The notes under the pieces are model-generated. The model was not told where the DNA came from and did not search any database. It saw only the letters and a program-made list of their open reading frames with translations. Below are positions 4,556-60,243 of a stretch of 64,000 nt of DNA, piece by piece. The position numbers and the translations under genes were made by a program. This DNA is from an uncultured Clostridia bacterium (GTDB lineage Bacteria; Bacillota; Clostridia; Oscillospirales; JAAYOS01), in contig CANRJS010000004.1 of the NCBI GenBank assembly GCA_947631015.1, forward strand, positions 48,913 to 112,912, given 5' to 3'. Every line of letters starts with the position of its first letter. The stretch's first letter is position 1.

Positions 4556-5437
4556 ATGCGGTATGCTGTCGCACTCGGCTTCTTTGACGGCGTACATATC
4601 GGCCACGCCGCGCTTATACGCCGGACGGCGGCGCTCGCGAAGCGTCTCGGCCTCGAGCCCGCCGTCTGCACCTTCGACCGCTCCCCCGCCTCCGCGCTCG
4701 GAAGAAGCGGCGTGAAGCTGATAAACTCGCTTCCCGACCGGCTTTTGCTCCTCCGCTCGCTCGGCGTAGAGCATATTTTCGTCCTCGACTTCGACGACCG
4801 CCTCCGCTCGACCGAGCCGGAGGACTTTGTGTCGCTCCTCGCATCCAAGTACGACGCCGGCGCGCTCTGCTGCGGCTGGAACTACCGCTTCGGCGCGGAG
4901 GGACGCGGCGACTGCGAGCTTCTTCGGCGCGAGTGCGCGCGCCTCGGTCTCGGCTTCGATATGCAGCCTGCCGTAGACGCAGGCGGCTCGGCGGTGAGCT
5001 CCACCCGAATCCGCGCGCTCCTCGAAAATGGGGACGCGGAGGCGGCGCGCGGGCTTCTCGGCCATCCGCACATCCTCACGGGCGAGGTGCTGCACGGCAA
5101 CGCGCTCGGCAGGACGCTCGGCTTTCCCACGGCGAACCTCCGCGTGCCGGACGGCGTCCTCGCGCCGCGCTACGGCGTCTACGCCGTCCGCGTCCGGCTC
5201 GGGAGTGAGACTTTCGCCGGAATAGCAAACGTCGGCGAGAAGCCGACCGTCGGCAATTACGCCGCCGGCGTCGAGACGAACATCTTCGACTTCGACCGCG
5301 ACATCTACGGCGAGGAGATGACGGTCGAGTTCCTGCACTTTGTCCGCCCCGAGCGGAAGTTCTCCGGGCTCGACGAGCTGCAGGCGCAGGTACTCGCCGA
5401 CCGCGAGGCGGTGCGGCGCAGTCTCGAACGCGAATAG
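4556..5437 (+). CDS. ribF: Bifunctional riboflavin kinase / FMN adenylyltransferase
   Basis: GFFDGVHIGH nucleotidyltransferase motif and a C-terminal riboflavin kinase domain (GFPTANL). I chose ATG 4556 (RBS GAGGTGG 6 nt upstream) over the track's TTG at 4541. Confidence 0.9.
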   Translation: MRYAVALGFFDGVHIGHAALIRRTAALAKRLGLEPAVCTFDRSPASALGRSGVKLINSLPDRLLLLRSLGVEHIFVLDFDDRLRSTEPEDFVSLLASKYDAGALCCGWNYRFGAEGRGDCELLRRECARLGLGFDMQPAVDAGGSAVSSTRIRALLENGDAEAARGLLGHPHILTGEVLHGNALGRTLGFPTANLRVPDGVLAPRYGVYAVRVRLGSETFAGIANVGEKPTVGNYAAGVETNIFDFDRDIYGEEMTVEFLHFVRPERKFSGLDELQAQVLADREAVRRSLERE

Positions 5438-5607: not shown

Positions 5608-6168
5608 ATGAAAAACATCCTGAAACCCCTCCTCCGCGCGCTCCCGCTCGCGCTGATGCTAGCGCTTCTCTGCTGCTCGTGCTTTGCCACCTACGACACG
5701 TCTGCGGAGGTGGACGGCTACACCGTCGACTTTCAAACGGGGCAGATAACCGACGGCGAGAACGTCTACGAGTTCAAATGGAGCGGCGATGAGGACGACG
5801 GCAGCGCGACCGTCACCCTGCCGAACGGACACTACTTCCTGCAAGAGTGGGGTCCTTCCCGCGTAAACGGCGGCATGGGCACCACCACGGTGGACGAGAT
5901 GGATCTGGCGACGACGCTCCCCGACGTCGTGCGCGACGCGCTCCATGCGCGCAAAAATCCCCCTATCCTGCCGCCGCTTCCGTTCATTGTCGCCGGTCTC
6001 GGCGTGCTGCTGATAGCCTATCCCAAAATCTACTGGTACCTCTCCGGCGGTTGGAAGATAAAGGACGCCGAACCGTCGAACGCTTACCTTGCCATAGGCC
6101 GCATCATCGGCGGAATTATCGTCTTTGCCGGAGTTGTCCTGTTTTTTATCAAAATCGGCGGGAGATAA
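5608..6168 (+). CDS. Hypothetical exported/membrane protein (N-terminal signal or lipobox-like LLCCSC, two C-terminal TM helices)
   Basis: ATG 5608 preceded by RBS AAAGGAG. Hydrophobic N-terminus LPLALMLALLCCSCFA and C-terminal hydrophobic stretches. No recognisable domain. Confidence 0.6.
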   Translation: MKNILKPLLRALPLALMLALLCCSCFATYDTSAEVDGYTVDFQTGQITDGENVYEFKWSGDEDDGSATVTLPNGHYFLQEWGPSRVNGGMGTTTVDEMDLATTLPDVVRDALHARKNPPILPPLPFIVAGLGVLLIAYPKIYWYLSGGWKIKDAEPSNAYLAIGRIIGGIIVFAGVVLFFIKIGGR

Positions 6169-6185
6169 TCGCTTGCGCGTCGGCG

Positions 6186-6590
6186 CGAAATGTGCTCGAG
6201 CAATGAATTGCCCTGCGCACCCTTTCGCAATTCCCGCGCGGTCGCCGACCGCGCGGGAGCCCTTTTAATTAACATGCTCGGGGCAAATGAATTGCCCCTG
6301 CGCGATATTGCCTGCGGCAACATCAACCGCGCGAACAGGCGCGGAACAGCGCTACGCGCCGAGTTTTCCGCCTTCGGCGGAAAATCGACGCACGCTCCGC
6401 GAGAGGTGTAAATTTCGACCTACGGTTCGTACAATGTCGGGACGTCGGCGCGAAGCGCCGAGGTCTGATGCGCCCGGTAGAAAGTTGCGGTTCGTAGTCA
6501 GTAGAAGGGCGCATTCGCGCCGCCGAAAATGATTTGAATTTATTTCGCCGCTAACGCGGCGAAACTCTGCGAGGCTGTCGGCGAGCAAAA
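6186..6590 (+). repeat. Intergenic multi-hairpin repeat locus A (half unit, one type-1 unit at 6229-6345, one type-2 unit)
   Basis: Shares the modules AATTCCC-hairpin-GGGAGCCCTT..ATGCTCG-hairpin(loop ATGAA)-TGCGC-hairpin-AACCGCGCGAACAGGCGCGG, TTTTCCGCC-TTCG-GGCGGAAAA and GCGAAACTCTGCGAGGC with loci at 8.3, 12.3, 22.4, 29.3 and 59.3 kb. Confidence 0.85.
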
Positions 6591-6788
6591 CGCCCACCAT
6601 TCCTCTTGCCATGCAGAAAACCCGAACATTCCAAAATTGCCGCACGTTCCGCGCAACGCGCGGCAGTTTTTGTTGTCTATATGTATAGAGAGCTCTTTAC
6701 GCGGCGAAGCCCGTTCCGCAGCCGTTCTTCAACACCCGTTTGAGTCCGTTCCCGGCGGCGCGCGCCGGAAACATGAAAGGAGGCCGCC

Positions 6789-7349
6789 ATGACTGACGAA
6801 GAGATAGTCGCGCTGTACTTCGCGCGCTCGGAGGAAGCCGTCGCCGCAACCGAGCGGCAGTACGGCGCGTACTGCCGCCGCATAGCGCGCACGATACTTC
6901 TTTCCGACGAGGACGCGGACGAGTGCCTCAATGACACTCTGCTCGCCGCATGGCGCTCGATACCTCCGGCAAAGCCCCGGAGCCTCGCCGCCTACCTCGG
7001 ACGGACGGCGCGCAACCTCGCCCTCAACCGCTTCAAGCTGTATTCGGCGCAGAAGCGCGGCGGCAGTGAGACGGCGCTCGCCCTCGACGAGCTCGGCGAC
7101 TGCGTCCCGTCCTCCGGCTCGGTCGAGGAGGAACTGAACGCGGCGCTCCTCTCGGATGCGATATCGCGCTTCCTCCGCGCCGAGCCGGAGGAGAAACGGA
7201 GGGTGTTCGTCCGCCGCTACTGGTACCTCTCCCCTCTCGAGGAGATCGCGGCGGAGTACGGCATGAGCCGCAGCAAACTCACAAGCCTCCTGTACAGGAT
7301 GCGGAAAGACCTGAAGAAATTCCTTGCAAAGGAGGGCTTTCACATATGA
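6789..7349 (+). CDS. RNA polymerase sigma-70 family factor, ECF-type
   Basis: 186 aa with region 2 (CLNDTLLAAWRS) and a region 4 HTH (LSPLEEIAAEYGMSRSKLTSLLYRMRKDL). RBS AAAGGAGG. Confidence 0.85.
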   Translation: MTDEEIVALYFARSEEAVAATERQYGAYCRRIARTILLSDEDADECLNDTLLAAWRSIPPAKPRSLAAYLGRTARNLALNRFKLYSAQKRGGSETALALDELGDCVPSSGSVEEELNAALLSDAISRFLRAEPEEKRRVFVRRYWYLSPLEEIAAEYGMSRSKLTSLLYRMRKDLKKFLAKEGFHI

Positions 7350-8344
7350 AAGAGAACAACAGCGAAGCGATGCTCCGCGCGATAGGCGGCATAGACGACG
7401 ACCTCATACTTTCCGCCGCGCCGGGCGAGCCGAAGCCGCGTCCCGCCCACCGTGTGCGCTTCGTCCGCCGGACGGCGGCGGTGCTCGCGGCGGCGCTGAT
7501 GCTCTCGCTCGCGGGCGTCGGCACGGCGATGGCCGTGAGCGAGGACGTCCGCGAAAGCGTGACCGAGGCCGCCCGAGCCGTCCGAAACGCGGTGCTCCGC
7601 GTCTTCGGCTTCGGCGACCCCGCGCCCGCGAACTCCTCCGACGCACAGAACCGCCGCGACCGCATAGACCGCTCCGACGGCGTCGAACACGCGCGCCTCA
7701 CCGAGCTTCGGAACGAGGCTCAGCTCTGGCTCCGCCAGGAACTCTCCCTCGACGGCGGCATAGACTTTGCCTCAGAGGACTGGTCGGATGCGGACGGCGT
7801 ATACGTCTGCCTGCTCGAACGCCGCCGCGACCCGTCCGCAGGAGAGGCAAGGTCCGAGGGGTACGACTCCCCCGTCCTCGCCGTCGTCGAATGGACGGAG
7901 GACGGCTTCGTCCTCCGCGGTCACACCGGGTTTTCGGAGGCTCCGGACGACGTTGCCGTCGCGGAGACCGAGGACGTCACCGCCGTATTCGGCAGCACCG
8001 CGCCGCTCGACGGCCGCTTTGCGGAACTCACATCCGTCAGCGCCCGGTGCTCGGACGGTTCGGTGCACATCTGCCGGACCTTCGGCGACGGATACTTCTT
8101 CCTTGTCGTGTGGCACACCGAACCGGGCGCGACGCTCGAGCGGATATACGCCTCCGGCGCTCTGAAGGAGCCGGCGACCGTGCCGCATCAGTACGACCGC
8201 ACGCTCGGGCGATACCTCGACGAGACGCAGGTGACCGACGTGACGCTCTGCCGCACCCCCGGCTCGGACACATGGCAGAACTACTGCGCCATAGTCGACG
8301 GCCGCGAGATGTTCTTTGAGCCGTTCATCACACCCGCCCCCTGA
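7346..8344 (+). CDS. Putative anti-sigma factor / single-pass membrane protein
   Basis: Start overlaps the sigma-factor stop (ATGA). Short cytoplasmic N-terminus, one TM helix (AAVLAAALMLSLAGVGTAMA) and an extracytoplasmic region of about 260 aa. No recognisable domain, so the function is inferred from position only. Confidence 0.55.
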   Translation: MKENNSEAMLRAIGGIDDDLILSAAPGEPKPRPAHRVRFVRRTAAVLAAALMLSLAGVGTAMAVSEDVRESVTEAARAVRNAVLRVFGFGDPAPANSSDAQNRRDRIDRSDGVEHARLTELRNEAQLWLRQELSLDGGIDFASEDWSDADGVYVCLLERRRDPSAGEARSEGYDSPVLAVVEWTEDGFVLRGHTGFSEAPDDVAVAETEDVTAVFGSTAPLDGRFAELTSVSARCSDGSVHICRTFGDGYFFLVVWHTEPGATLERIYASGALKEPATVPHQYDRTLGRYLDETQVTDVTLCRTPGSDTWQNYCAIVDGREMFFEPFITPAP

Positions 8345-8657
8345 CGCAATTCCCGCGCGGTCGGCGACCGCGCGGGAGCCCTTCCGATTGAAATGCTCGG
8401 GGCAACTGAATTGCCCCTGCGCAAATTCGGCGCAAAGCGCCGAATTTAACCGCGCGAACCGGCGCGGAGTGCGGCTTCGCCGCGACAGCCTCGCAGAGTT
8501 CGCCGCGTAAGCGGCGAATAGAGTCAAATTCATTTTCGGCGGCGGCGTGTACGTCGCCGAAAATACTTCTCGCGGAGCGCGCGTCGAAGACGGCAACTCC
8601 GTCGAGGCGCGTAGCGCAGCGTTTGCCGTCGGCAAGGCTGCGCCTTATTCGGCGGCC
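8345..8657. repeat. Intergenic multi-hairpin repeat locus B (type-1 unit at 8348-8468 in plus orientation; type-2 unit at about 8470-8657 in minus orientation)
   Basis: Lies between convergent genes. The left half matches loci A, D and E in plus orientation. The right half is the reverse complement of the type-2 module seen at 6346-6590 and 12410-12600. Confidence 0.85.
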
Positions 8658-8716
8658 TCGCGGGAAATTGGTAAGGCGGGCAGACAAAGTCTGCCCGCCT
8701 TACCAATTTCCCGCGA
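8658..8716. terminator. 28-bp perfect-stem hairpin between convergent genes (bidirectional terminator candidate; part of the repeat family)
   Basis: TCGCGGGAAATTGGTAAGGCGGGCAGAC-AAA-GTCTGCCCGCCTTACCAATTTCCCGCGA. Begins 5 nt from the CDF stop codon. A/T runs on both sides. Confidence 0.7.
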
Positions 8717-8720
8717 AAAC

Positions 8721-9590
8721 TTATTTTTCGTAAGGATTGACATGCACCATGCAGTGCTCGACCCGTAGTCCCGCGTCCTCGACGCCCTTGTGGACAGCCT
8801 CCGCTATCCGGTGCGCCTCCCGGAGCGGCATATCCGCGTCCACCGCTATTTCGATGTCCACGAACGCGACGTTCCCGCTTATCCGCGCCCGCAGCTCATC
8901 TACCGCGCGGACACCCTCCGTCGCGAGCGCCACCTCGCGTATCTTCTCAAGCTCCTCGGGCGGAATGCTGCGGTCGGTGAGGCGGCTCATCGCCTCGCGC
9001 AGGATGTCAAACGCCGCCTTGAGTATGAGCACCGAGACGCCTATCGCCGCCACCGGCTCGAGCCACCACACGCCTACCATGTTCCCGCCGACGCCGACGA
9101 GCACCGCCACCGAGCTCACCGCGTCGGTGCGGTGGTGCCACGCGTCCGCCATCAGCGAAAGCGAGTTCACCTTCTTCGCCGCGCGGCGGGTGTAGCGGAA
9201 CATCCACTCCTTTGCCATGATCGAGATGACCGTCACCGCGAGCGCGGCGGCGGACGCCTCCGAGCGCTCGCCGAGCCACAGGCTCCGCGCACCCTCAACG
9301 CCTATCATCACCGCCGTGCCGCCGAGCGCCACTGCAAGCAGCACCGACACGAGGCTCTCTATCCGCTGGTGCCCGTAGGGATGGTCCTCGTCCGCGCTGT
9401 TCGAGGCGAGCCGCAGTCCGAGCAGCACCGCGACGGTCGTCGCGACGTCCGAGACCGTATGTACGCCGTCGCTTATCACCGAAACGCTGTGCGCGAAAAA
9501 TCCCACCGTGAGCTTCACCGCCGCAAGGACGGCGTTCGCTATCATTGTTGTGACCGACACTTTTTTCGCTGTCAGATAGCTGTTTTCCAC
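8721..9590 (-). CDS. Cation diffusion facilitator (CDF) family metal efflux transporter
   Basis: HSVSVISDGVHTVSD and DAWHHRTD metal-site motifs, six TM segments and a C-terminal cytoplasmic domain. I chose GTG 9590 (RBS AAGGAGA 8 nt upstream) over the track's ATG 9749, whose extension is non-hydrophobic and covers the promoter. Confidence 0.85.
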   Translation of the reverse strand: MENSYLTAKKVSVTTMIANAVLAAVKLTVGFFAHSVSVISDGVHTVSDVATTVAVLLGLRLASNSADEDHPYGHQRIESLVSVLLAVALGGTAVMIGVEGARSLWLGERSEASAAALAVTVISIMAKEWMFRYTRRAAKKVNSLSLMADAWHHRTDAVSSVAVLVGVGGNMVGVWWLEPVAAIGVSVLILKAAFDILREAMSRLTDRSIPPEELEKIREVALATEGVRAVDELRARISGNVAFVDIEIAVDADMPLREAHRIAEAVHKGVEDAGLRVEHCMVHVNPYEK

Positions 9591-9720
9591 AGAGAATATC
9601 TCCTTTTCGGACGTTTTGCGCCCGGGCTTGTATCTCCCCGCCCGCGCGTGTATAATACATATATATGCCGCCTCTCCCCGCGCTGACAATACGCCGCGCG
9701 GAAAGCTTTGATTAACGCAT
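9591..9720 (-). promoter_or_regulatory. GC-rich structured 5' UTR of about 130 nt for the CDF gene (candidate metal-responsive leader)
   Basis: Lies between the consensus promoter and the RBS. Contains hairpins CCGCGC..GCGCGG and GCGCGGGC..GCCCGGGCGC. Membership of a known riboswitch class is not verified. Confidence 0.3.
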
Positions 9721-9749
9721 ATTGTATCACATGTCTCCTTCCCTTTCAA
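9721..9749 (-). promoter_or_regulatory. Sigma-A-type promoter for the CDF gene
   Basis: On the minus strand: TTGAAA, 17 nt, TACAAT. Confidence 0.6.
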
Positions 9750-12329: not shown

Positions 12330-12637
12330 GGCTTCGCGGCGAATCGCGCTCGCTTCGCTCGCTTACCAATTCGCCGCGAAAGCACCGGACAGAGCGGAGC
12401 TCTGCCGGTGCTATGCGCTCCGCTTCGCGCCGAGTTTTCCGCCTTCGGCGGAAAATCGACGCGCGCTCCGCGCAAAGAGTTTTTTCCGACGTACACGCCG
12501 TCGGAAAAAACGGATTTGACTTTATTTCGCGCCGTTGGCGCGAAACTCTGCGAGGCCAATCGGCGCAAAGCGCCGTTTTGGATTTGGCGAAACTCTGCGA
12601 GGCAGGTCAGCGCGCAGCGGCGCTCGTTTACCTGCTT
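12330..12637 (+). repeat. Intergenic multi-hairpin repeat locus C (type-2 modules; GCGAAACTCTGCGAGGC present twice)
   Basis: Contains CTTACCAATTCGCCGCGAAA, CACCGGACAGAGC..GCTCTGCCGGTG, GAGTTTTCCGCCTTCGGCGGAAAATCGACGCGCGCTCCGCG and two copies of GCGAAACTCTGCGAGGC. All are shared with loci A, B, E and F. Confidence 0.8.
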
Positions 12638-14399: not shown

Positions 14400-14648
14400 A
14401 AATAGCGAAAGACCGTGACCGGGAGAGTAACGGCGGAGCGCGCCAAGAGAGGCGGGGTCGTGGGCTGAAAGCCCCGCCGCGAAGCGAAGCCGCGAAGTTC
14501 ACCCGTGAGTCGCGCGGCTGAAAGCCATGCCTGTAGGCCGCGACGTGGGCGCACGTTACAGCGCGGACGAGGGCGCGGAGCATCCCGCGCCGAAGTTGGG
14601 TGGTACCGCGAAGTCTGCCTTCGCCCCAATGCGGGCGGAGGCTTTTTA
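14400..14648 (+). ncRNA. T-box riboswitch leader, Phe-specific
   Basis: Conserved T-box sequence AAGTTGGGTGGTACCGCG at 14593-14610. TTC codon at 14498-14500 in GAAGTTCA (candidate specifier). GTGA (14415-14418) and AGAGTA (14424-14429) stem-I motifs. Terminator GCCTTCGCCC / GGGCGGAGGC at 14617-14642 plus TTTTT. Sits directly upstream of pheS. Confidence 0.85.
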
Positions 14649-14748
14649 TATGCTTTCGCACCGTGACAGAACGCGCGCCGGCCGCGTCTCCGAGGAGGAC
14701 GGAGCCGGCGGAAAGTCGAATGTGCATTACATCACAGGAGGTCATATT

Positions 14749-15768
14749 ATGCAGGAAAAACTTGAGTTTCTGCGCCGCGAAGCGCTCGAAGCGCTCGAGG
14801 CGGCGAAGAATTCCGAGAAGCTGGAGGAGCTGAGGGTCCGCTTCCTCGGCCGCAAGGGTGAGCTGACGGCGATACTGAAGCAGATGGGCTCCCTCAGCGC
14901 CGAGGAGCGCCCGAAGATGGGCGCGCTTGCAAACGACGTGCGCGGCTTCATCGAAAAGGAGCTCGAGGTCCGCGGCAAGGCACTCGCGGAGGAGGCTCTC
15001 GCGCTCAAGCTCGAAAGCGAGCAGGTCGACGTGACGCTCCCCGGCTCGCACCGCGAGCTCGGGCACAAGCATCCGATGACGTCGCTTCTCGACGAGGTGA
15101 AGGAGATCTTCATCGGCATGGGCTTCGAGATAATCGAAGGCCCGGAGGTCGAGACGACCTTCTACAACTTCACCGCGCTGAACACCCCGGAGAACCACCC
15201 GTCCCGCGAGCCGCAGGACACCTTCTATTTCTCCCCCGACGTTCTGCTCCGCACCCAGACCTCGGCGATGCAGGCGAGGTATATGGAGACGCACAAGCCG
15301 CCCTTCCGCATCATCGCCCCCGGCCGCACCTACCGCAAGGACGAGGTCGACGCGACGCACAGCCCGATGTTTCACCAGATAGAGGGTCTTGTCGTCGACA
15401 AGGGGATAAAATTCACCGACCTCAAGGGCACGCTCGACATGCTCTTCAAGAAGATATACGGCGAGGATACGCGCATCCGCTTCCGCCCGCACCACTTCCC
15501 GTTCACCGAGCCCTCCGCCGAGATGGACCTTCAGTGCTTCAACTGCCACGGCGAGGGCTGCCGGATGTGCCACGGCGAGGGTTGGATAGAGATGCTCGGC
15601 TGCGGAATGGTCCACCCGAACGTGCTTCGCATCTGCGGCATCGACCCGGATGAATACTCCGGCTTCGCGTTCGGTCTCGGCACCGACCGCATGGCCATGT
15701 GGCGCTACGGCGTGAGCGACATGCGCCTGTTCTTCGACAACGACATGCGTTTCCTCACGCAGTTTTAA
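14749..15768 (+). CDS. pheS: Phenylalanine--tRNA ligase alpha subunit
   Basis: 339 aa from ATG 14749 (RBS AGGAGG). Class II aaRS motifs present (FRPHHFPFTEPSAE, GFAFGLGTDRMAM). The track ORF start at 14527 lies inside the T-box leader. Confidence 0.95.
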   Translation: MQEKLEFLRREALEALEAAKNSEKLEELRVRFLGRKGELTAILKQMGSLSAEERPKMGALANDVRGFIEKELEVRGKALAEEALALKLESEQVDVTLPGSHRELGHKHPMTSLLDEVKEIFIGMGFEIIEGPEVETTFYNFTALNTPENHPSREPQDTFYFSPDVLLRTQTSAMQARYMETHKPPFRIIAPGRTYRKDEVDATHSPMFHQIEGLVVDKGIKFTDLKGTLDMLFKKIYGEDTRIRFRPHHFPFTEPSAEMDLQCFNCHGEGCRMCHGEGWIEMLGCGMVHPNVLRICGIDPDEYSGFAFGLGTDRMAMWRYGVSDMRLFFDNDMRFLTQF

Positions 15769-22404: not shown

Positions 22405-22620
22405 TTTCGCTTCGCGTCGACGCGAAATGTGCTCGGGCGCAATGAATTGCCCTGCGCACCCTTTCGTAATTCCCAAACGCTCCAAAGGAGCGTTTGGGAG
22501 CCCTTCCGATTAAAATGCTCGCCGGAAATGAATTCCGGCTCCGCGAAGTTGGCGGCAAAGCCGCCAACTTCAACCGCGCAAACCGGCGCAGCGCAGCCGC
22601 AGGCTGCGTAGAAGGCAGGA
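22405..22620 (+). repeat. Intergenic multi-hairpin repeat locus D (half unit plus type-1 unit at 22468-22590)
   Basis: The first ~50 nt, GCGAAATGTGCTCG..CAATGAATTGCCCTGCGCACCCTTTCG.AATTCCC, are near-identical to 6187-6235. The hairpin stems differ from other copies but remain paired. Confidence 0.85.
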
Positions 22621-29233: not shown

Positions 29234-29259
29234 ACCGCTTATTACCTCTTTTCTTCATA

Positions 29260-29315
29260 CTCCCCCAACAGGAAGAACCGCGGGCACAAGCCCGCGGTTC
29301 TTCCTGTTGGGGGAG
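29260..29315. terminator. 26-bp perfect-stem hairpin after lacZ
   Basis: CTCCCCCAACAGGAAGAACCGCGGGC-ACAA-GCCCGCGGTTCTTCCTGTTGGGGGAG. No strong T-run follows. Confidence 0.6.
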
Positions 29316-29562
29316 TTGCCCCAAACGGCGCTCTGCGCCGTTTGGGGACCCCTTTAATTTAAATGCTCGGGGCGAATGAATCGCCCCTGCGCGATTTCGT
29401 CGCTGTGCGGCGAAATCACCGCGCGAACCAGCGCGGTCGCCGCTCACGCGGCGAAACTCTGTAGGGTTTCGTGAAAAATCACGCGGGCAAAGCCGCAATT
29501 CCTAAACGCTCAGTTGGAGCGTTGGGATCCCTTTTGATTGAAATTTTCGGGGCAATTCAGCA
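29316..29562 (+). repeat. Intergenic multi-hairpin repeat locus E (type-1 unit at 29317-29436, GCGAAACTCTG module, truncated second type-1 unit at 29497-29562)
   Basis: CCCC-AAACGGCGC-TCT-GCGCCGTTT-GGGG..AAATGCTCG-GGGGCGA-ATGAA-TCGCCCC-TGCGC.. and AATTCCT-AAACGCTC..GAGCGTT-GGGATCCCTTTTGATTGAAATTTTCG-GGGC. Confidence 0.85.
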
Positions 29563-29596
29563 AAAAATGATGCTTTACGTCCACAGCAAATCCCGA

Positions 29597-59344: not shown

Positions 59345-59747
59345 TTTCTACGCCGCCAAGGGCGACGTCCGCGCCTGTTCGCGCGGTTAAAGTTGCTTGC
59401 CGCAGGCAAGCAACTTTGCGAAGCCCCGATTCATTCGGGGCGAGCATTTCAATCGGAAGGGCTCCCACGCGGTCACCGACCGCGTGGGAATGCGTCGATT
59501 TTCCGCCGAAGGCGGTTCCGCGCCTGTTCGCGCGGTTAAAGTTGCTTGCCATAGGCAAGCAACTTTGCGGAGCCCCGATTCATTCGGGGCGAGCATTTCA
59601 ATCGGAAGGGCTCCCACGCGGTCACCGACCGCGTGGGAATTGCGTAGCGGAGCGTTGCCACCGGCAGAGCGAAGCTCTGTCCGGCTGTCTCGCGGGAAAT
59701 TGGTAAAGGAGCGGGCTTTTGCCCGCTCCTGCGATTTCCCGCGAAAA
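59345..59747 (-). repeat. Intergenic multi-hairpin repeat locus F: two tandem type-1 units (59370-59491 and 59519-59641, 149-bp period) plus a large-hairpin module (59690-59747), all in minus orientation
   Basis: The reverse complement reads AATTCCC-ACGCGGTC-GGT-GACCGCGT-GGGAGCCCTTCCGATTGAAATGCTCG-CCCCGA-ATGAA-TCGGGG-CTCCGCA-AAGTTGCTTGCC..GGCAAGCAACTT-TAACCGCGCGAACAGGCGCGGA. The unit is duplicated with only a few substitutions. Confidence 0.9.
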
Positions 59748-59783
59748 TTTTTCTGAAAAGTCCTAACGGACTTTTCAGAAAAA
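59748..59783 (-). terminator. Rho-independent terminator directly after the coiled-coil protein gene
   Basis: TTTTTCTGAAAAGTCC-GTTA-GGACTTTTCAGAAAAA on the minus strand, starting 1 nt after the TAA stop and followed by TTTTCG. Confidence 0.8.
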
Positions 59784-59784
59784 T

Positions 59785-60243
59785 TTAATTTTTGCTTGCG
59801 TTCTTGAAGCTCCCGCGTGAGGTCTTGACCTCGCCGAGTGCTTCCTCGAGCGCCTCCTGAGCACGGGCAAGCGCGTCGTCGACATACCTGTTGGTGGCGA
59901 TGCGCAGCTCCTTGCTCTTCTGCTCGGCGGCGTTCACTATCTCGCTTGCCTTCTGTCGCGCCGCGATGACGACCTCGTCGCGGCTGACCATCTGACGCGC
60001 GCGCTCCTCAGCGGCGCGCTTTATGGCGTCCGCCTCGCGCTTGGCGGAACCGCTTATCTCATTCTTGGTCGCCACGATATTGCGGGCCTGCTCTATCTCG
60101 GAGGGCAGTCTGTTCTCGATATCCTCGATAAGCTCCAGCACCTGGGCGCGGTCAATGACGCATTTTGCCCTTCCGAGCGAAAATCCGTCCTGCACCGCGT
60201 TTTTGAGCAGCTCCAAAAGTTCATCTACGTCATGACCGGCCAT
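59785..60243 (-). CDS. Coiled-coil protein of unknown function (often annotated ATPase / ATP synthase subunit b or H-like)
   Basis: 152 aa, highly charged and heptad-rich (..AKREADAIKRAAEERARQM..AEQKSKELRIATNRYVDDALARAQEALEEAL..). Confidence 0.7.
   Translation of the reverse strand: MAGHDVDELLELLKNAVQDGFSLGRAKCVIDRAQVLELIEDIENRLPSEIEQARNIVATKNEISGSAKREADAIKRAAEERARQMVSRDEVVIAARQKASEIVNAAEQKSKELRIATNRYVDDALARAQEALEEALGEVKTSRGSFKNASKN

Follow-up and report, generated by a model that had tools for sequence, protein, structure and literature searches.

What is conserved in a repeat whose stems change from copy to copy and yet stay paired? This question is raised by a 376-nt spacer located between ORF 7346-8344 and a convergent cation-efflux gene (CzcD, 8721-9749), in a 64,000-nt stretch of DNA of an uncultured Clostridia bacterium that is referred to here as the window. 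A preliminary description had pointed out a hairpin-rich unit in this spacer, and had proposed that selection acts on its secondary structure, as RNA or single-stranded DNA, rather than on its primary sequence. The unit (type 1, copy B) starts 3 nt past the stop codon of ORF 7346-8344. Type-1 units are non-coding, about 125 nt long, and contain four hairpins, hp1 to hp4, with a constant junction between the first two and short linkers elsewhere (Table 1). The folds predicted for copy B show indeed these four hairpins, with z values of -6.7 as DNA and -5.5 as RNA. The base that follows the hp2 stem (e.g., in 8399-8422) covaries with stem position 2, since alleles starting with G are mostly followed by CTGCGC and those starting with GC by CTCCGC, although L007, L023, and L027 deviate from this rule. 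Linkage could account for it, or an extra contact. Two other readings of the constant parts were discarded. A promoter formed by TTGAAA...TGAAT, across the junction and hp2, was ruled out by inspection, the spacing being 13 nt. A peptide starting at the invariant ATG of ATGCTCG was ruled out as well; it has no Shine-Dalgarno sequence, and the stem alleles freely alter its residues.

A covariance model, built from 41 copies and used to scan the window and other loci, detects six full type-1 copies and one decayed copy in the window, where the core patterns give 4-6 matches against 0.00 expected by chance. All type-1 copies of the window are intergenic, and their neighbors are ordinary housekeeping genes. 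The hairpin sequences first quoted are all present, but hairpin 2 of locus A lies at 6280-6298 and not at 6271-6289, an error of 9 positions. A type-2 slot had been said to behave in the same way as the type-1 stems, and its flanks are indeed conserved around two unrelated hairpins in the window, a comparison of two or three hairpin types only. The perfect palindromes at 8658-8716, 29259-29316, and 59745-59786 have loops of 3-4 nt. The window also contains a T-box leader (14406-14631, + strand) upstream of ORF 14527-15768, with a score of 93.5 bits, just over the gathering threshold (93). Although the G+C content is about 62%, this leader identifies the genome as Firmicutes-like.

Table 1. Repeat features of the window, and loci of other sequences (L numbers) discussed in the text.
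Feature	Position	Strand	Details
Type-1 unit, copy A	6228-6347	+	Covariance model 120 bits; hp1 and hp2 stems as in copy B; hp3 differs, GATATTGCC/GGCAACATC, with one A·C mismatch
Partial unit just 5' of copy A	6190-6227	+	Decayed hp2-like piece and CTGCGCACCCTTTCGCAATT; from sequence
Type-1 unit, copy B	8347-8470	+	Unit of the preliminary description; covariance model match 128 bits, fold, sequence
Copy B, hp1	8351-8377	+	Arms 8351-8362/8366-8377; 12 bp, CCC/GGG closure
Copy B, constant junction	8378-8394	+	17 nt, between hp1 and hp2
Copy B, outer clamp pairs around hp2	8395-8396 with 8419-8420	+	G-C/C-G
Copy B, hp2	8399-8417	+	Arms 8399-8405/8411-8417; 7 bp, loop CTGAA
Copy B, hp3	8423-8447	+	Arms 8423-8433/8437-8447; 11 bp
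Copy B, hp4	8450-8467	+	Arms 8450-8455/8462-8467; 6 bp, loop GAACCG
Type-1 unit, copy D	22467-22594	+	Covariance model 140.5 bits; hp1 AAACGCTCC, hp2 CCGGAA, hp3 GAAGTTGGCGGC
Partial fragment upstream of copy D	~22427-22466		Same as the fragment 5' of copy A; sequence, weak covariance model match 22430-22457
Type-1 unit, copy E	29315-29439	+	Covariance model 116.6 bits; ortholog in L056
Degenerate truncated type-1 copy	29496-29591	+	Covariance model 22 bits; hp1 and junction recognizable, hp2 broken
Type-1 unit, copy F1	59515-59642	-	Covariance model 136 bits; first unit of a 149-nt tandem duplication (direct repeat 98% identical)
Type-1 unit, copy F2	59366-59493	-	Covariance model 133.8 bits; second unit of the tandem pair with F1
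Type-2 unit	6343-6405	+	Constant flanks around hairpin TTTTCCGCC-TTC-GGCGGAAAA; direct repeat 85% identical with second copy
Type-2 unit, second copy	12414-12476	+	Same hairpin type as 6343-6405
Type-2 unit, reverse orientation	8567-8623	-	Same flanks, unrelated hairpin GACGG-AGTTG-CCGTC
Perfect palindrome, 28-bp arms	8658-8716		Closes locus B repeat cluster; related modules 12355-12385, 59655-59750
Perfect palindrome, 27-bp arms	29259-29316		Edge of repeat cluster; conserved in L056 orthologue with a different loop
Perfect palindrome, 19-bp arms	59745-59786		Edge of repeat cluster
Sites of the ~95-nt module	L007 5389-5470, 5520-5615, 5680-5775; L043 3000-3090; L017 499-709; L027 6109-6320; L067 6190-6398
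Units bracketed by duplicated gene ends	L020 7380-7629; L073 1104-1387; L066 1-314; L078 11-445; L065 5182-5443; L010 3821-4102		ackA (three), rplL, mnmG 5' end, NAD synthase
tRNA-linked units	L012, L038, L041, L048, L054, L057, L060, L072, L075, L076, L081, L089, L091, L094, L095, L096

The junction and hp2 pattern is found in at least 102 genome blocks among the matches listed; roughly seventy of these are true copies and the rest are chance matches in unrelated genomes. The true copies belong, among the matches listed, to three rabbit-gut "uncultured Clostridia" MAG species (the expanded clade) and to other Oscillospiraceae, with Flintibacter, Pseudoflavonifractor, Lawsonibacter, Intestinimonas, Dysosmobacter, Oscillibacter, Hominicoprocola, and Enterenecus among the further carriers. 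The window is syntenic with two of the three rabbit-gut species, at 87-93% identity, and it is in this clade of rabbit-gut genomes that the type-1 family is strongly expanded. From the window and the collected loci, the model recovers 103 copies in more than 25 genomes. It also matches IMG/VR contigs, and genes for capsid, portal, and tail-fibre proteins are present on one of these (L187). Two units (4890-5015 and 8591-8716) lie there inside the structural gene cluster, each directly 5' of a capsid or portal gene start and antisense to the gene, with hp1 abutting the Shine-Dalgarno sequence. A plasmid collection gave no match to the type-1 unit, and a phage collection gave only three unverified, unannotated virome scaffolds, which are not counted as evidence.

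No earlier description of this repeat family was found in the literature. In Rfam 15, no family reaches its gathering score on any unit, the only matches (T-box, tRNA, SAM, and SRP) lying off the units, and a permissive Rfam search of 6100-8800 returned only chance hairpin matches below threshold. A metagenome scan with the CzcD protein encoded beside locus B retrieved only 31-44%-identical homologues from unrelated environments, and no orthologous spacers. Exact-protein look-up of the M42 peptidase of the window gave only short Logan contigs (L183 1-152 and L184 1-155), which end in the copy D repeat; a second window protein had no exact record, and no empty site was obtained from these look-ups. 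Public short-read assemblies of the strain are thus interrupted precisely within copy D, and the family is therefore probably under-represented in MAGs. It is an uncatalogued family of modular, hairpin-rich intergenic repeats of Oscillospiraceae-like Clostridia and at least one phage.

The pairing was evaluated in a structure-blind MAFFT alignment of 41 copies. Standard pairs make up 98.7% of its 1542 stem cells, and in 25 of the 39 pairs both sides have changed. These values were never attained in 500 column shuffles, and sliding the 3' partners by 1-3 columns leaves 37-41% paired. RNAalifold independently predicts hp1 to hp3. In model-fitted alignments, which lean towards the structure, the 103 copies are 97.5% paired with double changes in 37 of 39 pairs, and the 42 copies from outside the expanded clade are 95.9% paired with 35 of 39. 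The initial observation that the stems differ and stay paired is thus borne out, also in the larger alignment, and disrupted copies are rare. The loops and junctions had been described as nearly constant. This is the case for the junctions (mean column identity 0.87-0.99), the hp2 loop (0.97), and the hp4 loop (0.89), but not for the loops of hp1 (0.45) and hp3 (0.53), which are the most variable columns. The corresponding value is 0.75-0.81 for the stems of hp1 to hp3 and 0.98 for the hp4 stem, hp4 being nearly invariant in the clade of the window. These data support the view that base pairing is constrained rather than stem sequence.

Whether the constrained molecule is RNA or DNA can be addressed through the wobble pairs. 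Among 3722 stem cells, 96.3% are Watson-Crick; 45 cells (1.2%) are of the G·U type and 32 (0.9%) of the A·C type, i.e., would-be G·U on the opposite strand (p = 0.17). The tolerance of G·U on the transcribed strand only, a generic trait of structured RNA, is thus not observed. Splitting the wobble cells by the direction of neighboring transcription reveals no enrichment, with G·U versus A·C counts of 4 versus 6 in sense copies and 18 versus 16 in antisense copies, and the genera outside the expanded clade show no significant strand asymmetry (29 versus 17, p = 0.10). A GC-skew test for replication-strand bias was weak and gave opposite directions in the two groups (p = 0.03 and 0.02), and no interpretation is drawn from it. 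With gene calls from our own GC3-based heuristic, the spacers occupied in the expanded clade are co-directional in 37 cases, convergent in 16, and divergent in 2, and the units of co-directional spacers are sense in 18 cases and antisense in 19. Avoiding promoters and being indifferent to strand is a REP-like pattern. Because the pairs are almost purely Watson-Crick on both strands and the orientation is random in the expanded clade, the constraint is placed on single-stranded or cruciform DNA, and not on a particular RNA. Selection on secondary structure, as first proposed, is a reasonable view, but nothing favors its RNA version.

Outside the expanded clade, the units display a strict polarity. 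All 16 tRNA-linked units lie 3' of the tRNA, on the tRNA strand, at 30-340 nt, and many anticodons are represented; 13 of them are within about 70 nt, behind a 15-17-bp A-tract/T-tract hairpin. The unit faces the 3' end of the gene in all ten cases of gene-3'-end duplication examined, and the mnmG case is found at the 5' end of the gene. Such a polarity near tRNAs and gene ends leaves room for an RNA- or transcription-linked role, and it is not predicted by a purely DNA-level function. It could be explained by a cis-acting structured RNA or small RNA, in which hairpins of 3' UTRs, intercistronic regions, or tRNA trailers, together with the constant loops, would serve to bind a protein or to obstruct RNases, the stems covarying under RNA-level selection. 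Invariant unpaired nucleotides beside freely covarying stems are consistent with such an RNA, as are the persistence of covariation across genera, the position of most units outside the expanded clade between stop codon and terminator, the contact of hp1 with the capsid and portal Shine-Dalgarno sequences in the phage, and the hairpin plus T-run that ends some Hominicoprocola-type units. However, wobble pairs are rare and not enriched on the transcribed strand, nor on the reverse strand in other genera, sense and antisense copies are equally frequent in the expanded clade, there is no promoter room between the tRNA terminator hairpin and the unit, and no Rfam family corresponds to it. Allele swapping, target duplications, and nested modules, detailed below, are moreover DNA-level events. 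On balance, a structured RNA appears rather unlikely.

The alleles tell how the covariation could have arisen. The copies do not reduce to two or three founder sub-families, since 27 hp2, 49 hp3, and 68 hp1 alleles are distinguished, and the 66 copies of the window's clade show 61 different hp1/hp2/hp3 combinations. Ten perfect hp2 alleles cover 82 copies (27, 15, 10, 9, 8, 7, 3, 1, 1, and 1), whereas 12 imperfect variants cover 13 copies and are nearly all singletons. In the L056 orthologue of copy E, whose flanks are about 90% identical, hp1 is kept, three base pairs of hp2 are swapped, and hp3 is unrelated. Tandem units at one locus have the local flank and hp1 in common and differ from hp2 to hp4. 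Read from the sequences, these mosaics point to an exchange of whole hairpin cassettes between copies, for which the constant linkers likely provide the homology. Much of the covariation signal is the inheritance of whole self-complementary hairpin cassettes shuffled among copies.

A non-selective route to double changes is offered by replication template switching, for which the one-step creation or repair of a perfect stem is documented (PMC8794818). It is conceivable that no structural selection operates at all, and that the unit is neutral palindromic DNA whose arms are made or repaired by template switching in quasi-palindromes and by gene conversion, mimicking compensatory evolution. The purely Watson-Crick pairs, with many G-C to C-G transversion swaps and almost no wobble intermediates, would agree with this, and the inverted copy of junction-spanning ackA bases found within the 3' part of the unit in L020 and L073 looks like a template-switch footprint. 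Neutrality leaves unexplained, however, the invariance of the junction and of the loops of hp2 and hp4 across genera, the fixed order and spacing of four hairpins in more than 25 genomes, and the singleton status of the imperfect variants compared with 7-27 copies for perfect alleles. This explanation is considered very unlikely.

Several signs of mobility were also uncovered. L001 and L007 are 95% identical over 8 kb, and at the unit common to both, L007 has one extra unit and three extra modules of about 95 nt, one in an hp2 loop and two in hp4 loops. The module consists of a hairpin, CGAGGGC...GCCCTCG, with a loop of about 30 nt, followed by a second hairpin and by CC(R)ACATTGA. It is inserted inside hp2 in five copies, with intact hp2 arms around it, and it is absent from the orthologous L001 unit and from the 64-kb window. 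In addition, direct repeats of 24-161 nt, variable in length and not identical, enclose many units, and their junction with the unit is sharp and coincides with the base of hp1. The duplicated target is the terminal 58-87 nt of ackA in three genera, where two or more different junctions occur; other targets include the ends of rplL and of an NAD synthase gene and codons 1-18 of mnmG. The gene at the duplicated target is always left intact. All six window copies, like most of those in the window's clade, show no flanking duplication within 350 nt.

Comparison of the functional gene ends with their displaced duplicates reveals 22 coding differences (L010, with its mis-called frame, being left out of this count), nearly all at third codon positions, and 19 of the 22 are synonymous. 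A simple insertion followed by decay does not explain such duplicates. Judging from these substitutions, a gene that had diverged while remaining functional is the probable source of one of the two copies, and this hints that the unit may travel with a gene end or integrate in a Campbell-style manner. It could be a site of recombination or a miniature cassette of the integrative type, which would leave the genome as a small circle with the 3' end of a gene or tRNA and re-integrate at the homologous place of other genomes, either by a Campbell-type event or through a recombinase that recognizes folded hairpins, as happens at integron attC and CTX/dif sites. The direct repeats of gene ends around units next to intact genes and the synonymous differences are what such a cassette would leave. 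In L055 and L063, the unit adjoins a tRNA 3' fragment although no complete tRNA lies close by. Integration classically targets tRNA genes, and tandem X-E-X-E-X arrays are seen, all of which would fit as well. On the other hand, the neighbors are housekeeping genes with no adjacent integrase or recombinase, the duplicated sequence differs at each locus, which implies that there is no single protein-recognized core, and flanking duplications are missing around most copies of the window's clade. An integrative cassette of this kind is accordingly regarded as highly improbable.

No transposase, integrase, or recurrent protein was detected near the copies, among the Pfam-scanned neighbors and 297 ORFs, the inspected part of the expanded-clade genomes amounting to about 0.4 Mb. 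At one locus (L024 1-290), an ORF ending in ...HIHIQYDGLGFIPLNELMKEETA lies upstream of the unit, and the preceding hairpin has no 5' arm. By eye, this end looks like the C-terminal part of a large serine recombinase, a similarity that would hint at the insertion of an integrative element there. To our knowledge, gene-end duplications with synonymous-only divergence, strict tRNA polarity, and modules nested in loops fit no known mechanism of transposition or integration. The unit might be the visible part of an undescribed type of DNA movement, in which a structure-specific enzyme or replicative template switching would copy the hairpin cassette beside hairpins or gene ends, carrying or creating a replacement gene end, while the module of about 95 nt would home into loops. 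This process would be common to many Oscillospiraceae genera and ferried by phages. A replacement end for the target gene, if true, would explain the long synonymous-only duplications. We consider this scenario quite unlikely as a whole.

The reading that we prefer, with slightly better than even confidence, is that the unit belongs with the REP/BIME/BOX elements, as mobile DNA that is non-autonomous and recombines. In this mobile DNA, gene conversion across the constant junctions would exchange the hairpins as intact cassettes, and it is for this reason that stems could differ and stay paired. New alleles would come from pair-by-pair compensatory change or from one-step template switching. 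Mismatched copies do not seem to spread, as would be expected if hairpins had to be extruded for a copy to be made or kept. Those single-stranded segments that do not vary (GATTGAAATGCTCG, the hp2 loop RTGAA-T, CTGCGC, and the hp4 loop) may constitute the recognition site of a putative trans-acting protein. Read-through transcripts would still carry the hairpins, and could gain REP-like effects on 3'-end stability or insulation. Besides the polarity outside the expanded clade, the synonymous differences between duplicated gene ends, and the lack of a candidate enzyme near the copies, it weighs against mobile DNA that the unit has neither terminal inverted repeats nor a target duplication of fixed length, and thus agrees with none of the known chemistries of transposition.

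Oscillospiraceae abound in the gut, and most of their genomes are known as bins of short reads. The type-1 repeat breaks their assemblies and fills many of the spacers downstream of genes. A catalogued model would improve annotation and avoid false "structured RNA" calls based on covariation alone. More generally, overwhelming covariation statistics do not by themselves indicate RNA, as an identical signal results from the inheritance of cassettes, from gene conversion, and possibly from template switching.

How does the unit compare with known systems? The integron attC sites and the ends of IS200/IS605 elements have, like the unit, a conserved structure with free stem sequence and a few invariant unpaired bases, a logic that may also apply to recognition of the unit. 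The attC site consists of one imperfect hairpin, which has extrahelical bases and R''-L''/L'-R' boxes and lies 3' of cassette ORFs in an array beside intI, whereas the unit has four perfect hairpins and occupies scattered loci between housekeeping genes; no intI, cassette ORF, or attC R/L box organization was seen at the units or their neighbors. In contrast to IS200/IS605 PATEs, the unit does not have the two-ended LE/RE layout, with its left and right subterminal hairpins, and the sequence 5' of hp1 differs at every locus, while PATEs insert 3' of a fixed tetra- or pentanucleotide. No TnpA or TnpB was present among the scanned neighbors and ORFs near copies, which cover part of each genome. 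Target duplications, as found around the unit, are made neither by integron attC nor by IS200/IS605 systems. They are made by MITEs (Correia/NEMIS, ERIC, RUP), which resemble the unit in being short and non-autonomous, polymorphic for insertion and absence, present in transcripts, and spread horizontally. Nevertheless, MITE target duplications have a fixed length of 2-10 nt, against the variable 24-161 nt of the unit, for which no parent IS is known. The 5' (CGCAATT-CCC...) and 3' (...GGCGCGG) ends of the unit are not complementary either, its inverted repeats all being internal hairpins.

Among Firmicutes, BOX (boxA-boxB-boxC of Streptococcus pneumoniae) and bcr1 (Bacillus cereus group) are intergenic modules in fixed order, with predicted stable stem-loops, often co-transcribed and without a transposase. 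They have no evident sequence relationship with the unit, whose slots differ by carrying many interchangeable alleles between constant single-stranded linkers. The cyanobacterial SDR are very small repeats nested in other repeats at places that preserve the host hairpin; they differ from the unit in phylum, sequence, and size.

The REP, BIME, and REPIN elements of Proteobacteria, associated with RAYT, are high-copy extragenic hairpins located 3' of genes and rare in promoter spacers, with motif types combined as mosaic clusters and vertical persistence across related genera, as for the unit. The preliminary description had contrasted the type-1 stems with classic REP copies, but this contrast fails, because REPINs are described as frequently showing compensatory changes across the hairpin (PMC3116915). 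The differences lie elsewhere. REP/REPIN are 20-40-nt palindromes or inverted doublets, whereas the unit, about 125 nt long, comprises four distinct hairpins whose order and orientation are fixed. It forms no inverted doublet, lacks a 5' tetranucleotide of the GTAG type, has long variable target duplications, and is hosted by Clostridia. No RAYT (Y1 HUH) was identified among the Pfam-scanned neighbors, nor any multi-copy or transposase-like family in the 297 ORFs near copies, a survey of part of each genome. The unit shows none of the tested defining features of MITE, PATE, or attC, and does not have the REPIN palindrome, doublet, or tetranucleotide form; its REP traits are to be extragenic, to occur in high copy number (six in 64 kb), and to be depleted in divergent spacers according to the heuristic gene calls.
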